This document shows, piece by piece, positions 3,728 to 50,191 of a stretch of DNA of 64,000 nucleotides. The stretch lies in assembly GCF_003334315.1 (NCBI RefSeq), contig NZ_QOWR01000005.1; one strand, 5' to 3'. This stretch comes from Escherichia coli. GTDB taxonomy: Bacteria > Pseudomonadota > Gammaproteobacteria > Enterobacterales > Enterobacteriaceae. Position 1 is the stretch's first letter. Every line of letters begins with the position of its first letter. A program made the position numbers and the translations under genes. Below the pieces are notes generated by a model, which made no database searches, had not been told where the DNA came from, and was given only the letters and a program-made list of their open reading frames with translations.

Positions 3728-3808
3728 GGCCTGATAAGACGCGTGAGCGTCGCATCAGGCATCGTTCACCATTGCCGGATGCGGCGTGAACGCCTTATCC
3801 GGCCTACG
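3728..3808. repeat. REP (repetitive extragenic palindrome) pair between convergent ypfH and ypfN
   Basis: gcctgataagacgc...gcgtcgcatcaggc and gccggatgcggcgtgaacgccttatccggcctac palindromic units. Confidence 0.8.
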
Positions 3809-5556: not shown

Positions 5557-5913
5557 TTATGAGAATAAATACTCATTTAAGGGTGAAAACATTTTGCCTG
5601 CAAATGATTATCAGGAAATATAACATTATCGAAGTATTCAAATTAACAACTATTAAATAATATTAAACATTTTTAACGTAAACATTAAGAATATTCATCT
5701 TGTTATCTGTCTGTATTTTAACCAGAATTAAATCAGTATTAGATGCCGTATGAATATCTCGAAATGTTGCTGTGTATCACATACAAATCATCACCGCAGG
5801 ACCATAGTATTTACATAAGATTTGTCCCCCGGAGGTAGTCATCGCAGCAATCGAGTAAATTAGCTTCACCACGGTATATTGTTTCCGTAGAATACCCATA
5901 ATTAGAGGTTGTT

Positions 5914-6071: not shown

Positions 6072-9000
6072 TTATTCCGGGCGCGGCTTCAGCGGGAAGC
6101 GGCGGCGCACCAGCACAAAGAACAGCGGCACGAAGTAAATAGCCAGAATAGTGGCCGAAATCATCCCGCCCATTACGCCAGTACCCACCGCATGCTGACC
6201 ACCGGAACCGGCACCCGTGCTGGTTGCCATTGGCAATACGCCGAAGATAAATGCCAGCGAGGTCATCAGAATCGGGCGTAAACGCTGACGGCAGGCGTGG
6301 AGCGTCGCTTCAAACAGGTCGTGGCCTTTTTGGTTCATCTCGTTAGCAAACTCGACGATCAGGATGGCGTTTTTCGCCGATAAACCAATGACCGTTAACA
6401 GGCCCACCTGGAAGTAAACGTCGTTTTCCAGCCCGCGCATCCAGGTTGCCAGCAGCGCGCCGATTACCCCCAGCGGCACGACCAGCATTACCGAGAACGG
6501 CACCGACCAGCTTTCATACAACGCAGCCAGACACAGGAATACCACCAGCAAGGAAATGGCGTACAGCGCCGGAGCCTGCGCGCCGGAAAGCCGCTCCTGA
6601 TACGACATCGCCGTCCACTCCAGACCAAAGCCGTTTGGCAGCTGCTTCACTAACGATTCCATAATATCCATCGCCGTACCGGTACTGACCCCCGGTGCGG
6701 CTTCCCCAACAATCTCAACCGCAGAATAACCGTTATAGCGTTCCAGACGCGGCGAGCCTGTTTCCCAGCGTGAGGTCGCGAAAGCAGAGAAGGGCACCAT
6801 GCCGCCATCTTTATTTCGGACATACCAGAGATTGATGTCATCTGGCAGCATGCGATACGGCGCAGCTGCCTGCACATAGACTTTCTTCACGCGACCGCGA
6901 TCCATAAAGTCATTCACATAGCTCGAACCCCAGGCGGTTTGCAGTGTGTCGTTAATATCGTCGATAGCAACGCCCAGCGCCTGAGCTTTACGCTGGTCGA
7001 TATCAATCTGCAACTGCGGACTGTCGTCGAGGCCGTTATGGCGCACACGGGTTAGCTCCGGGTTTTCCGCCGCCAGCGCCAGCAACTGATTACGTGCTGC
7101 CATCAGCGCATCGTGACCCGCTCCAGCGTGGTCCTGCAACTCCATATCAAAACCCGCAGAACTACCAAGACCGCTAATTGCTGGCGGGCTGCTGGCGATA
7201 ACGCGAGCTTCTTTAATCTTGTTAAACGCCTTCGTTGCACGCTCGATAATGGCAAATGAGGTGCCGGTCTTACTGTCGCGTTCGCTCCAGTCTTTCAGGC
7301 GGATAAACATTCGCGCCACGTTTTGCCCGTTGCCCCCAGGGCCAGAGCCAACGGTGGCAAACACCGACATGATGTTGTCTTTTTCATGGGTGAAGTAATA
7401 TTTCTCGATTTGCTCAACGACTTTCAGGGTCTGTTGTTGGGTTGAACCGCTGGGCAATTGTACCGAGGTAGTAAACATGCCCCGGTCTTCCAGCGGTAAG
7501 AACGACGTCGGCAAACGCAGGAACAGGAACACCATGCCGCCAAGCAGCAGGACATAAATCACAATCCAGCGCAGGCTACGGTGGAGAATTTTCGCCACCC
7601 CTTTTTCGTAGCGTTCGGCGTTGCGGTTAAACATCTGGTTAAACCAGGCAAAAAAGCCTTTTTGCCCATGATGCTCACCTTTTTTCAGTGGCTTAAGTAG
7701 CGTGGCACACAGAGCCGGAGTGAGGATCATCGCTACCAGTACTGACAGCACCATCGCCGCAACAATGGTAATAGAGAACTGGCGATAGATGGCACCGGTG
7801 GTGCCGCCGAAGAAGGCCATTGGTACAAATACCGCCGAAAGCACCATCGCAATCCCGACCAGTGCCCCCTGGATCTGCCCCATCGATTTACGTGTGGCTT
7901 CGCGAGGAGTGAGTCCTTCCTCACTCATAATACGTTCGACGTTTTCTACCACCACGATGGCATCATCCACCAGCAGACCGATCGCCAGCACCATCGCGAA
8001 CATGGTTAAGGTGTTGACGCTGTAACCGAAGGCGTAAAGTACGGAGAAGGTTCCCATCAACACCACCGGCACGGCGATAGTGGGTATCAGCGTGGCGCGG
8101 AAGTTTTGCAGGAACAGATACATAACGAGGAAAACCAGAGCGATAGCTTCCAGCAGCGTTTTCACCACGTCTTCAATGGAGGCTTTAACAAACGAGGTGG
8201 TTTCATACGCCACCTTGTATTCCAGTCCATGCGGGAAATACTGCGCCAGCTCGTCGAGACGATTGAGCACCAGCTCCGCTGTCGCCATTTCGTTTGCGCC
8301 GGAGGCCAGTTTTACCCCCAGCCCGGAGGCTGGCTTACCATTGAAGCGGCTAAGATAATCGTATTTCTCCGCCCCCATTTCGACGGTGGCGACATCGCCC
8401 AGCCTTACCTCTGAGCCGTCTTGATTCACCCTCAAGGTGATATCGCGGAACTGTTCTGGTGTTTGCAGCAGTGACTGGGCGTTAATGGTGGCGTTGAGCG
8501 CCTGCTTATCGACGGAAGGTGTACCACCAAGTTGCCCAACCGCAATCTGCGCGTTCTGTGACTCAATGGCATCAGTGACATCTTTAGCTGTCATCTGGAA
8601 ACTGTTGAGTTTCGCCGGGTCCAGCCAGATACGCATGGAATATTGCGAACCATAGGCATCAATATCCCCGACGCCATTTACGCGGCTTAACGGGTCCTGA
8701 ATATTACTGGCAACATAATCAGCAATATCCTGTTTATCCATCGAACCATCGGTAGAGACGAAGGCAATGGTCAGAATGTTGGTATCGCCGGTTTTACGCA
8801 CCGTCACGCCCTGATTTTGCACCGCCTGCGGTAACTTTCGCATGGCTGATTGCAGCTGGTTTTGTACTTGCTGCACGGCTTCGTCCGGATCGGTGCCTGC
8901 TTTAAAACTTAAAGTGACAGATGCCTGACCGGTGCCACTGCTCTGAGATGACATATACATGAGATTATCGAGGCCGGTCATATTTTGCTCGATAACCTGG

Positions 9001-14002: not shown

Positions 14003-15046
14003 ATGCGCTATCGCATTTTCCTTCTCTTTTTTTTCGCTTTGTTGCCGACGTCTTTGGCGTGGGCGGCACCAGCGCAACGGGCGTTTTCCGACTGGCAGGT
14101 CACCTGTAATAACCAAAACTTCTGCGTGGCGCGCAATACGGGCGATCATAATGGACTGGTGATGACCCTGAGCCGCAGCGCCGGGGCGCATACCGATGCC
14201 GTTTTACGTATTGAGCGCGGCGGGTTGAAGTCGCCGGATGCGTCTGAAGGGGAGATAGCGCCACGGCTGCTGTTAGATGGTGAGCCGTTGGCGTTAAGTG
14301 GTGACAAGTGGCGGATTTCACCATGGTTATTAGTAACCGATGATACGGCAACCATCACCGCGTTTTTGCAGATAATTCAGGAAGGGAAGGCGATTACCTT
14401 ACGCGACGGCAATCAGACCATTTCTCTGAGCGGCTTAAAAGCGGCGTTGTTGTTTATTGATGCTCAGCAAAAGCGCGTTGGCAGTGAAACCGCCTGGATC
14501 AAGAAAGGGGACGAACCGCCGCTCAGCGTACCGCCCGCGCCTGCGCTGAAAGAGGTCGCGGTGGTTAACCCAACGCCGACGCCACTCTCACTCGAAGAAC
14601 GCAACGATTTGCTGGATTATGGAAACTGGCGGATGAATGGTCTGCGCTGCTCGCTTGATCCATTGCGTCGTGAGGTGAATGTCACTGCGCTGACTGATGA
14701 TAAAGCGCTGATGATGATTAGCTGTGAGGCAGGGGCCTATAACACCATTGATTTGGCATGGATTGTGTCGCGTAAAAAGCCACTAGCCTCGCGCCCGGTT
14801 CGGTTGCGTTTGCCGTTCAACAACGGGCAGGAGACGAATGAACTGGAACTGATGAACGCAACATTTGATGAGAAATCGCGTGAACTGGTGACCTTAGCGA
14901 AAGGGCGCGGATTAAGCGATTGTGGCATTCAGGCGCGCTGGCGCTTTGACGGTCAGCGTTTTCGCCTGGTGCGTTACGCCGCAGAACCCACCTGCGATAA
15001 CTGGCATGGGCCAGACGCCTGGCCCACGTTGTGGATCACCCGTTAA
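14003..15046 (+). CDS. ypfG: Secreted DUF1176-family protein YpfG
   Basis: 347 aa; cleavable signal peptide (LLPTSLAWAAP); synteny. Confidence 0.8.
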   Translation: MRYRIFLLFFFALLPTSLAWAAPAQRAFSDWQVTCNNQNFCVARNTGDHNGLVMTLSRSAGAHTDAVLRIERGGLKSPDASEGEIAPRLLLDGEPLALSGDKWRISPWLLVTDDTATITAFLQIIQEGKAITLRDGNQTISLSGLKAALLFIDAQQKRVGSETAWIKKGDEPPLSVPPAPALKEVAVVNPTPTPLSLEERNDLLDYGNWRMNGLRCSLDPLRREVNVTALTDDKALMMISCEAGAYNTIDLAWIVSRKKPLASRPVRLRLPFNNGQETNELELMNATFDEKSRELVTLAKGRGLSDCGIQARWRFDGQRFRLVRYAAEPTCDNWHGPDAWPTLWITR

Positions 15047-15067
15047 ACAAAATGGCGGGGACATGTA

Positions 15068-15166
15068 GACCGGATAAGACGCTGTAGGCCGGATAAGACG
15101 CGTCAGCGTCGCATCCGGCAATCAGCATCCGGCAATCAGCATCCGGCAATCAGCATCCGGCGATCA
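15068..15166. repeat. REP elements followed by a 14-bp tandem array (gcatccggcaatca x3 plus one variant copy)
   Basis: two ccggataagacgc REP cores at about 15071-15103; tandem copies at 15111-15124, 15125-15138, 15139-15152 and variant 15153-15166. Confidence 0.85.
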
Positions 15167-15169
15167 CCA

Positions 15170-17173
15170 TCAGGCACCTTTCACTCCCAGCACCTTATGC
15201 GCTTTTGCCACAATATTCTCGGCGGTAAAGCCAAAGAACGGGAACAGCTTATCCGCCGGAGCAGATTCCCCGTAACCCGTCATCCCGACAATTGCCCCTT
15301 TCAGACCAACATACTTGTACCAGTAATCGGCAATACCTGCTTCCACCGCCACGCGAGCCGCAACGTTAGAAGGCAACACCGACTCCCGATATTCCTCATC
15401 CTGGGCGTCGAAAATATCGGTCGAGGGCAGGGAAACTACGCGTACATTGCGACCTTCTCCCGCTAATTTCTCTGCCGCTTGCAGGGTGATTTCCATCTCT
15501 GAACCGGTGGCAATCAAAATAATATCTGGCTTACCGCCGCTGTCTTTCAGCACATAACCGCCACGAGCAATCTCTTTAACCTGATCCGGCGTACGTTCCA
15601 CCTGGGCCAGATTCTGCCTGGAGAGGATCAGTGCCGTCGGTCCGTTGTGGCGCTCAACCGCCAGCTTCCAGCCCACCGCTGCTTCCACCTGATCGCACGG
15701 TCGCCAGGTGCTGAAATTTGGCGTTAAGCGCAGGCTGGCCAGTTGCTCAACAGCCTGGTGCGTCGGACCATCTTCGCCCAGGCCAATTGAGTCGTGGGTA
15801 TAAACCATAATCTGCCGCGCTTTCATCAGTGCCGCCATCCGCGCGGCGTTACGGGCGTATTCAACAAACATCAGGAACGTCGCGGTATACGGCACAAAGC
15901 CGCCGTGGTGCGCGATGCCGTTGGCGATAGCGGTCATGCCAAATTCACGCACCCCGTAGTGAATGTAGTTGCCCGCCGGATCTTCCTTCAGCGAAACAGA
16001 ACCTTTCCAGATGGTCAGGTTGCTGGGAGCCAGATCCGCCGAACCGCCGAGCAGCTCCGGTAGCATAGGCCCGTAAGCGTTAAGCGTATTTTGCGAAGCC
16101 TTACGGGTAGCGATTTTCGCCGGATTTGCCTGTAACTCATTGATATACTTCTGAGTCGTTTTCTCCCAGTCCTTCGGTAAACCACCGCTCATCCGACGGG
16201 TAAACTCTTCTGCCAGTTGCGGATGAGCCTTTTTATAGGCGGCAAACTTCTCATTCCAGCTCTGCTGCGCTTTTTCGCCTTTTTCGCGGGCATCCCAGGC
16301 GTGATAAATCTCTTTAGGGATCTCAAATGGCGGATGGTGCCAGCCCAGTTTTTGCCGTGCCAGCGCCACTTCTTCTTCCCCCAGAGGTGCGCCGTGCGCC
16401 TCTTCCTTACCTGCTTTATTCGGCGAACCAAAGCCAATCACCGTACGGCAGATAATCAGCGACGGCTTATCTTTCACGCTTTGCGCTTCAAGGATCGCTT
16501 CCTTCACCGCCTGCGGATCGTGACCGTCGATTTCATGGATCACATGCCAGTGATAGGCTTCAAAACGTTTTGCCGTATCGTCGGTAAACCAGCCTTCGGT
16601 TTCTCCATCAATCGAAATACCGTTGTGATCGTAAAAACCAATCAGCTTGCCCAGTCCCAGCGTGCCCGCCAGCGAACAGACTTCGTGGGAAATACCTTCC
16701 ATCAGGCAGCCGTCGCCCATAAACACATAGGTGAAGTGATCGACAATTTCATGATCCGGCTGGTTAAACTGCGCCGCCAGTGTACGCTCTGCTATCGCCA
16801 GTCCGACGGCGTTCGCCAAACCTTGTCCAAGCGGGCCGGTGGTGGTTTCAACACCTGGCGTATAACCAATCTCCGGGTGGCCTGGGGTTTTCGAATGCAA
16901 CTGACGGAAGTTCTTCAGTTCTTCCAGCGGCAGGTCGTAACCGGTCAGATGCAGCAAACTGTAGAGCAGCATCGACGCGTGACCGTTGGAAAGAATAAAG
17001 CGGTCGCGATCATACCAGGTTGGGTCGGTGGGGTTATGTTTAAGAAAATCGTTCCACAGCACTTCGGCAATATCAGCCATGCCCATCGGCGCGCCGGGAT
17101 GACCAGAATTGGCTTTTTGTACCGCATCCATACTGAGTGCGCGAATCGCATTGGCAAGGTCATTTCGGGACAT
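15170..17173 (-). CDS. tktB: Transketolase 2
   Basis: 667 aa from ATG 17173 ([14 protein letters not shown]...); TPP-binding motifs; ORF track extends 21 codons upstream. Confidence 0.93.
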
Positions 17174-49104: not shown

Positions 49105-50191
49105 GATTGCCAATATTAAGAAGTCTTTTGGTCGCACCCAGGTGCTGAACGATATCTCACTGGATATTCCTTCAGGTCAGATGGCCGCGTTGCTGGGGCC
49201 GTCCGGTTCCGGGAAAACCACGCTGCTGCGCATTATCGCCGGGCTGGAGCATCAAACCAGCGGGCATATTCGCTTCCACGGCACCGACGTGAGCCGCCTG
49301 CACGCGCGCGATCGTAAAGTCGGTTTCGTGTTCCAGCATTACGCGCTGTTCCGCCATATGACGGTATTCGACAATATCGCTTTTGGCCTGACGGTGCTGC
49401 CGCGTCGCGAGCGCCCGAATGCCACAGCCATCAAAGCGAAAGTGACAAAATTGCTGGAAATGATCCAGCTTGCGCATCTGGCGGATCGTTATCCGGCGCA
49501 GCTTTCCGGCGGCCAGAAACAGCGTGTGGCGCTGGCGCGCGCGCTGGCTGTAGAACCGCAAATTCTGCTGCTTGATGAACCGTTTGGCGCGCTGGATGCG
49601 CAGGTGCGTAAAGAGCTGCGTCGCTGGCTGCGTCAACTGCATGAAGAGCTGAAATTCACCAGCGTGTTTGTGACCCACGACCAGGAAGAGGCGACCGAAG
49701 TAGCCGATCGTGTAGTGGTGATGAGTCAGGGGAATATTGAACAGGCTGATGCGCCGAATCAGGTATGGCGCGAACCAGCGACCCGTTTTGTACTCGAATT
49801 TATGGGCGAAGTGAACCGCCTGCAGGGAACCATTCGCGGCGGGCAGTTCCATGTTGGCGCACATCGCTGGCCGCTGGGCTACACACCTGCTTATCAGGGG
49901 CCGGTGGATCTCTTCCTGCGCCCGTGGGAAGTGGATATCAGCCGCCGTACCAGTCTCGATTCGCCGCTGCCGGTACAGGTACTGGAAGCCAGCCCGAAAG
50001 GTCACTACACCCAATTAGTGGTGCAGCCGCTGGGGTGGTACAACGAACCGCTGACGGTCGTGATGCATGGCGACGATGCCCCGCAGCGTGGCGAGCGTTT
50101 ATTCGTTGGTCTGCAACATGCGCGGCTGTATAACGGCGACGAGCGTATCGAAACCCGCGATGAGGAACTTGCTCTCGCACAAAGCGCCTGA
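49094..50191 (+). CDS. cysA: Sulfate/thiosulfate ABC transporter ATPase CysA
   Basis: 365 aa; Walker [10 protein letters not shown], signature LSGGQKQR, Walker B LLLDEPF; overlaps cysW by 11 nt. Confidence 0.93.

Follow-up and report, generated by a model that had tools for sequence, protein, structure and literature searches.

The convergent Escherichia coli genes ypfG and tktB are separated by a REP element against which a run of abutting 14-bp units is set. This raises the questions of whether the run is a genuine tandem array, whether its unit number differs amongst strains, by which process it was made and resized, and whether its length matters for the neighboring tktB gene. The sequence analyzed here is a stretch of 64 kb, which is referred to throughout as the window. 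The genes ypfG and tkt/tktB were identified from two RefSeq annotations, that of K-12 MG1655 and that of a genome matching the query at 100% identity, and the spacer between the two genes measures 123 bp. The K-12 MG1655 RefSeq record, as displayed, carries no repeat feature between tktB and ypfG, an observation from which no conclusion was drawn. Sequence and RefSeq annotation together bear out the original prediction that a tandem array is fused to a REP element between these two genes, and the features of the region are the following:

14003-15046, plus strand: ypfG (DUF1176 protein), converging on the repeat region; from the open reading frame list and the RefSeq annotation of identical and sister genomes
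15064-15101, plus strand: REP 5'-arm tandem array, 2 x 19 bp (TGTAGACCGGATAAGACGC, TGTAGGCCGGATAAGACGC); from Tandem Repeats Finder (period 19, 2.0 copies, score 69) and a repeat search
15084-15119, plus strand: the sole complete REP palindrome, GTAG-GCCGGAT-AA-GACGC / loop GTCA / GCGTC-GC-ATCCGGC; from an inverted-repeat search and folds
15111-15166, plus strand: REP 3'-arm tandem array, 4 x 14 bp (3 x GCATCCGGCAATCA + GCATCCGGCGATCA), with 1-7 copies in other genomes; from the sequence, Tandem Repeats Finder and a repeat search
15167-15180, plus strand: degenerate fifth copy, CCATCAGGCACCTT; from the reach of Tandem Repeats Finder to 15176 and the repeat search at 75% identity
15170-17173, minus strand: tktB (transketolase 2), stop codon at 15170-15172; from the open reading frame list, RefSeq tkt (2004 nt) and K-12 b2465

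The array had been described as three perfect units and one with a single substitution, and this description agreed with the sequence, Tandem Repeats Finder and the repeat search. Reading of the sequence places GCATCCGGCAATCA at 15111-15124, 15125-15138 and 15139-15152, followed at 15153-15166 by GCATCCGGCGATCA, which differs by one A>G change. Tandem Repeats Finder reported the array at 15111-15176 (period 14, 4.7 copies, 92% matches) with a score of 111, the highest amongst the six arrays that it found in the window. A separate repeat search returned the identical 14-bp register and a fifth copy at 75% identity, extending to 15180 (copy at 15153-15180). A chance origin of the array can be ruled out, because 28 consecutive period-14 matches have a probability of about 4^-28 per site, or about 1e-12 across the whole window by our own arithmetic. 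The gap between the end of the array and the tktB stop codon (15170-15172, minus strand) is 3 nt and not 4 bp as initially stated; the array forms the first nucleotides of the tktB 3' untranslated region. The degenerate fifth copy (CCATCAGGCACC) runs over the tktB stop and the two codons before it, where the translation ends in ...VKGA*, and its minus-strand reading, GGTGCCTGATGG, includes a REP-head-like GCCTGATG motif with the tktB stop codon.

A single REP hairpin lies between the convergent ypfG and tktB, and the 14-bp unit is its 3' arm. As had been proposed, the unit corresponds to a half-site of the REP palindrome, with GCATCCGGC (the 3' half) pairing with GCCGGAT..GC of the 5' arm. The two REP cores that were thought to precede the array turned out to be two tandem copies of the 19-bp REP 5' arm, followed by one loop. 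Positions 15064-15101 hold two tandem 19-bp copies of TGTAGRCCGGATAAGACGC, each of which (15064-15082 and 15083-15101) comprises a GTAG foot and the left stem half, and these are followed by GTCAGCGTC and then by the first 14-bp unit. The locus thus contains one complete palindrome rather than two REP cores, because a 5' arm repeated twice and a 3' arm repeated four times (five with the degenerate copy) surround a single loop. This palindrome, at 15084-15119, has an imperfect stem with an asymmetric bulge. The lower part of the stem pairs as GCCGGAT/ATCCGGC and the upper part as GACGC/GCGTC, with AA as the bulge between them and a loop of 4 nt. The repeat search scored the inverted repeat of the palindrome as 75% complementary with arms 4 nt apart, and all folds, RNA and DNA alike, had this hairpin innermost. 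Altogether, the locus has an unusual architecture, in which two mutually complementary arm arrays are arranged about one loop.

The published definition of REPs, including the 5' GTAG foot and the hairpin features, is matched at 15084-15119 (PMC3333891). The core hairpin is extragenic, flanked by the stops of ypfG (15046) and tktB (15170), and it folds as an imperfect palindromic stem-loop with mismatched stem bases. The GTAG foot is found as TGTAGG at 15083-15088 and as TGTAGA at 15064-15069. Additionally, the arm motif GCCGGATAAGRCG, allowing at most one mismatch, is dispersed, occurring 7 times in the window against 0.10 expected, and a 381-bp query spanning the locus matched 6,962 places in 5,429 E. 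coli records, the surplus being REP-only matches. A tandem-repeat scan of the window found no other REPs with tandem arms.

Several other observations were made in the window. Opposite-strand REP arm motifs 62 bp apart lie between ypfH and ypfN, at 3729-3741 on the plus strand and 3791-3803 on the minus strand, and from its sequence the pair at 3729-3803 looks like an ordinary REP/iREP (BIME-like) pair. Tandem Repeats Finder also reported weak tandem repeats at 6463-6523 within acrD (period 24, about 2 copies, 77-80% matches) and at 49590-49651 within cysA (period 33, 1.9 copies), both of which are probably internal coding repeats. At about 5900-5905, just upstream of the ypfM start, the window is 5 bp shorter (ATAATTAGAGG vs ATAATTATAAGAGAGG) than its close relatives 8GC, W5-6 and CP53, and this gap adjoins the 5' side of the ypfM ribosome-binding region.

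The proposal that this is a variable-number locus was addressed by comparing copy number across E. coli genomes, and the comparison revealed neither invariance nor a miscount of the units. All 5,426 complete E. coli genomes had a match to the 381-bp locus query, and the locus spans 333-381 bp in them. Alleles were read directly and counted in a census based on BLAST coverage thresholds, for which synthetic queries with over-long arrays ranked the genomes by copy number; alleles with divergent left flanks (of the L002 type, described below) may be missed by this procedure. Amongst these 5,426 genomes, the 14-bp unit was present in 1-7 copies and the 19-bp unit in 1-3 copies, which, together with the head-to-tail arrangement of the short units (period 14 x 4.7 and period 19 x 2.0), is the strain-to-strain difference expected of a VNTR. 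The modal allele has two 5' arms and two 3' units (2x2), the modal 14-bp count being 2. The allele types encountered were the following:

K-12 and O157:H7: two 5' arms, two 3' units
other alleles: two 5' arms, with 3, 4, 5, 6 or 7 3' units
L009 and L022 alleles: one 5' arm, two 3' units
L007 allele: one 5' arm, three 3' units
O111 RM9322: three 5' arms, two 3' units
strain DAM: three 5' arms, four 3' units
L008 allele: one 5' arm, one 3' unit and a diverged stop-proximal copy
L010 allele: REP swapped for a different 78-bp element, one 3' unit (beside tktB)

Expanded 14-bp arrays were rare. The maximum of seven copies was found in one of the 5,426 genomes (strain 8GC), six copies in 5 and five copies in 66. 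At least five units were present in 72 genomes and at least four in 102 (1.9%), from which it follows that the four-copy state of the window occurs in about 30 genomes (0.6%). Two or more perfect CAATCA units were detected in 1,614 of the 5,426 genomes, and two or more tandem 5' arms in 3,278, at one place per genome, with every listed position being the ypfG-tktB locus. In a systematic sample of 59 chromosomes, approximately 56% carried the 2x2 allele, 20% had one arm and two units, 15% had the REP replaced, 3% were of the L008 type and 3% had at least four units. Two units were present in every K-12 derivative and O157:H7 strain sampled. Separately, the 29,168-bp record NZ_CP019906.1 (strain MDR_56), which is counted among plasmids, ends at 29129-29168 in the ypfG 3' end, next to upp, and is probably a chromosomal fragment and not a plasmid.

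An assembly artefact, either in the array itself or in its variation, is extremely improbable as an explanation of these counts. The sole seven-copy genome is an unreplicated, chromosome-level shotgun assembly, and this one genome could be an assembly error; the five- and six-copy alleles each recur, in 66 and 5 genomes. The whole array measures at most 98 bp, which is below typical read length, and the four-, five- and six-copy alleles come from about 30, 66 and 5 independent complete genomes that originated in different laboratories and hosts. The two-copy allele is, moreover, identical over dozens of K-12 assemblies.

Two further allele types were observed at the locus. In the first, a 78-bp element (...CTCGCCCCTCTGGGGAGAGGGTTAGGGTTAGGGGAA...) replaces the REP hairpin and leaves a single 14-bp unit beside tktB; it is complete in 817 of the 5,426 genomes (15%), for example in L010 (NZ_CP095448.1), where it is equivalent to positions 15047-15152 of the window. 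This element is a dispersed repeat, since diverged copies occur at several other intergenic sites per genome, K-12 included, and it presumably resembles Box C. The second is the four-unit allele L002 (NZ_CP027579.1), equivalent to window positions 15064-15082 and 15168-15176, whose outer 5' arm belongs to the GCCTGAT type (TGTCAGCCTGATAAGACGC). This arm is exactly complementary to the ATCAGGC that overlaps the tktB stop, and the outermost stem tier of L002 could thus take in the stop codon.

The process behind the variation can be approached through the sequences that flank the arrays. The alleles with 4-7 copies sit on one flanking haplotype, with a common tkt protein (WP_023281409.1) and 0-3 substitutions over 6.1 kb of flanks. 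Strains 8GC (7 copies) and W5-6 (5 copies) have 0 substitutions in 49,043 bp of flanks, a change in whole units on an otherwise identical background and the mark of a VNTR array that mutates faster than its flanks acquire point substitutions. The sole difference between their flanks is a 1-bp indel, which matches the annotated maeB frameshift in W5-6 (L144, 18446-20726); a sequencing error may underlie this frameshift. Over about 49 kb of flanks, the window (4 copies) has 17 substitutions relative to both 8GC and W5-6 and 20 relative to CP53 (6 copies). In the expansions the internal CAATCA unit was the only one added, and the tktB-proximal CGATCA unit was retained.

These observations make it likely that the locus is a compound minisatellite, derived from both arms of one ordinary REP hairpin and resized by slippage. 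Slipped-strand expansion of a REP arm, as suggested by the original prediction, is the best-supported mechanism, with whole internal CAATCA units gained on a common haplotype and a difference of five versus seven copies without substitutions in 49 kb. Copy number would shift in whole units through strand misalignment during replication, and the rate of slippage would climb with the length of the array. Such length dependence fits the data, since five and seven copies occur on flanks identical over 49 kb, 4-7 copies occur on one haplotype, and the two-copy K-12 and O157:H7 alleles are uniform. Every 5' arm is able to pair with every 3' arm, and the many out-of-register single-strand hairpins that this makes available would aid slippage. 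At the tktB end, an imperfect direct repeat spaced at 14 bp, GCATCCGGCA / CCATCAGGCA, probably gave rise to the first 14-bp duplication. On inspection of the sequence, one observation speaks against slippage for the founding event, namely that the 19-bp arm duplication has no flanking microhomology, a feature that would be favored in classical slippage.

RecA-dependent unequal crossing-over or gene conversion, between sister chromosomes or with incoming DNA, could produce similar length changes in place of slippage. Arrays of 4-7 units provide 42-84 bp of perfect identity, which is within the reach of RecA, and the presence of a four-unit allele on the divergent left flank of L002 could reflect recombination between alleles. 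The common two-unit alleles, however, offer just 14-28 bp of identity, which is at or below the minimum that RecA usually needs, and the flanks of the five- and seven-copy strains are identical, so that no imported tract is visible. Taken together, these points make a RecA-dependent origin very improbable.

The arrays could also have been made or resized by a REP-associated tyrosine transposase (RAYT, TnpAREP), which would cleave single-stranded DNA at C|T and, on rejoining, add or remove the intervening segment. Both the GTAG foot and the imperfect stem that are required for TnpAREP binding are present here (PMC3333891), and Nunvar et al. held slippage alone unlikely to explain length differences of BIMEs (PMC2817692). 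On the minus strand, potential cleavage sites occur once per unit, as each 19-bp unit has the canonical cleavage context CC|TACA and each 14-bp junction has GC|TGAT. This spacing is nevertheless uninformative, since in a tandem array every dinucleotide is bound to reappear with each unit. Published models, moreover, rely on the addition of whole REP or BIME units and on an inverted REP partner, and this locus has no such partner. The steps of one and two units on identical backgrounds are an outcome of slippage. A RAYT could in principle be involved but is not required, and we regard its involvement in these arrays as distinctly improbable. An origin of the 19-bp duplication at RAYT sites was rejected, as a duplication of a one-arm allele between two C|T sites predicts ...CCGGCCTGAC... 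and the sequence observed was ...CCGGCCTACA....

Single-strand folds of the alleles are consistent with slippage. With DNA parameters, the K-12 2x2 allele gave one dominant two-tier hairpin, with centroid and MFE structures in agreement and a z of -4.8. The window allele gave z values of -3.1 to -4.1, a diffuse ensemble and an MFE frequency of 0.0006-0.03, a low value indicating that many registers compete. In the folds of this allele, the two loop-proximal units were predicted to pair and the remaining units to compete. Similarly, in a model grid of 21 arm combinations, the loop-proximal 3' arm paired with P >= 0.99 and the others with P = 0.3-0.97. These per-arm pairing probabilities alone were retained from the grid; its metric for the distance from the stop to the first stable run was discarded, since weak pairings with coding sequence dominated it. 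Neither a promoter nor an intrinsic terminator was predicted on either strand at 14800-15400, and no T-run, as an intrinsic terminator would have, follows the stem.

By analogy with REPs at 3' ends, which generally form protective stem-loops (PMC12306157), the hairpin probably protects the talA-tktB and ypfG transcripts from exonucleases by forming a stem-loop at their 3' ends. Extra arms would add tiers or unpaired spacer to this structure and no new activity, and we assume that variation in copy number is most likely neutral or nearly so.

A role for the array length in tktB expression was weighed against this assumption of neutrality. Because the array starts 3 nt past the tktB stop, copy number alters the distance from the stop to the stable stem, and according to Liang, Rudd and Deutscher (2015), as summarized in PMC12306157, protein output falls when a REP stem lies within 15 nt of a stop codon and stalls the terminating ribosome. 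Copy number could thus act as a selected, heritable rheostat on tktB expression, in which surplus 3' arms move the stem away from the stop and relieve ribosome stalling. The position of the array, the location of the stop inside a REP-head-like motif and the predicted stem positions agree with this idea: for the K-12 2x2 allele the stem is predicted to start 8 nt past the stop, versus 22 nt for the first strong stem in the RNA centroid of the 2x4 allele of the window. The expanded alleles are, however, rare (1.9% of genomes with at least four units) and confined to one haplotype, a pattern like that of drift combined with mutability. The numbers of 5' and 3' arms also vary independently, with no visible compensation, and the predicted ensembles are diffuse, with a distance metric that is noisy across the modelled alleles. 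On balance, we consider a rheostat unlikely. The related proposal, that the paired arm arrays might form a mutable, heritable and contingency-like switch that tunes the levels of TktB and of talA-tktB mRNA 3' ends, with gains and losses of 14-bp arms resetting how near the REP stem lies to the terminating ribosome, appears quite unlikely.

Altogether, the locus is a real but ordinary REP-derived VNTR rather than an element of a novel kind, and the allele present in the window is one of its rare expanded forms. As a strain marker it would be modest: it can be sized by PCR in 14-bp steps (1-7) and additional 19-bp steps, and within one phylogroup-A-like haplotype it separates strains that are identical over 49 kb apart from it. 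In K-12, in O157:H7 and in most other lineages it carries no information. The locus also provides a clean natural case of a REP hairpin seeding minisatellites from its own arms, and its allele series allows slippage and RAYT models of REP/BIME length change to be tested at one locus. If the proximity of stem and stop matters as reported for other REPs, the natural alleles would represent a ready distance series for tktB. The current understanding of REPs is unchanged by these observations unless a functional effect is shown.

Comparison with known systems places the locus amongst the E. coli REPs (y, z1 and z2 types), with which it shares the extragenic site, the GTAG foot, the GCCGGAT/ATCCGGC lower stem and the asymmetric bulge, as well as the GC-rich upper stem, the 4-nt loop, the position at the 3' ends of convergent genes and the recurrence of the motif in the window. 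A normal REP has one copy of each arm, whereas here the 19-bp arm is present twice and the 14-bp arm four times around one loop, with the outermost 3' copy lying over the tktB stop. As with the stop-proximal REPs of Liang et al. (2015), in the account given by PMC12306157, REP-arm sequence begins close to a stop codon, in this case 3 nt past that of tktB. Set against the limit of 15 nt given in that account, the predicted stem lies at 8 nt in the 2x2 allele and at 22 nt or more in the four-unit allele of the window. The REP hairpin consensus is also common to naRNA4 (Rfam RF02564), a nucleoid-associated RNA derived from REP325. The Rfam search returned no family but naRNA4, and that below threshold: the best match (15087-15147, minus strand) reached 39.2 bits against a gathering threshold of 59.5, which is generic REP similarity only. 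A CRISPR array was likewise rejected, as the units abut without spacers.

That strains differ in how many whole BIME units they carry is well established (PMC3333891, PMC2817692), and the number of tandem units in BIME-2 and atypical BIME arrays varies among E. coli strains (Bachellier et al.; Ton-Hoang et al. 2012, PMC3333891). Like these arrays, the ypfG-tktB locus is REP-derived, tandem and length-polymorphic at a fixed position. BIME units, however, consist of a REP and an inverted REP with linkers and measure from tens of bp to about 100 bp, whereas the tandem units here are half-REPs of 19 and 14 bp, a difference that sets them apart from BIME tandem units as well. The 5' arms all have one orientation, the 3' arms are complementary to them and there is a single loop; the locus is not a BIME because it has no inverted REP partner.

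A genome-contig scan for GCCGGATGC N2-10 x3 returned at least 120 loci, nearly all of them (GCCGGAT)n microsatellites or coding repeats in GC-rich bacteria, and was uninformative on REP-arm arrays. Amongst the matches listed (L023-L142), (GCCGGAT)n heptamer microsatellites were widespread in GC-rich bacteria, including Streptomyces, Microbacterium and others. In the Acidobacteriota MAG JAUWTT01 (L088-L100), (GCCGGAT)n was found at many contig ends beside a conserved ...TTTTC..GGTGACA... flank, pointing to a family of repeats at which assemblies break off.

Literature searches, incomplete in their coverage, found no paper that describes tandem arrays of REP half-arms and none that treats the ypfG-tktB locus as a repeat, VNTR or marker; the array was in none of the E. 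coli MLVA schemes found. Typing by the length of REP-like clusters has been used in Stenotrophomonas (PMC2613905). The ypfG-tktB array resembles MLVA VNTR loci in being an intergenic head-to-tail repeat that gains and loses whole units, is more variable at higher counts and can be sized by PCR. Unlike those loci, it consists of two adjacent, mutually complementary arrays and has low diversity in most lineages, where it is fixed at 2. We thus assign the locus to intergenic VNTRs and REP length polymorphism, since its sequence has the properties of both a REP and a VNTR and lacks those of a BIME, an intrinsic terminator, a CRISPR array and naRNA4.
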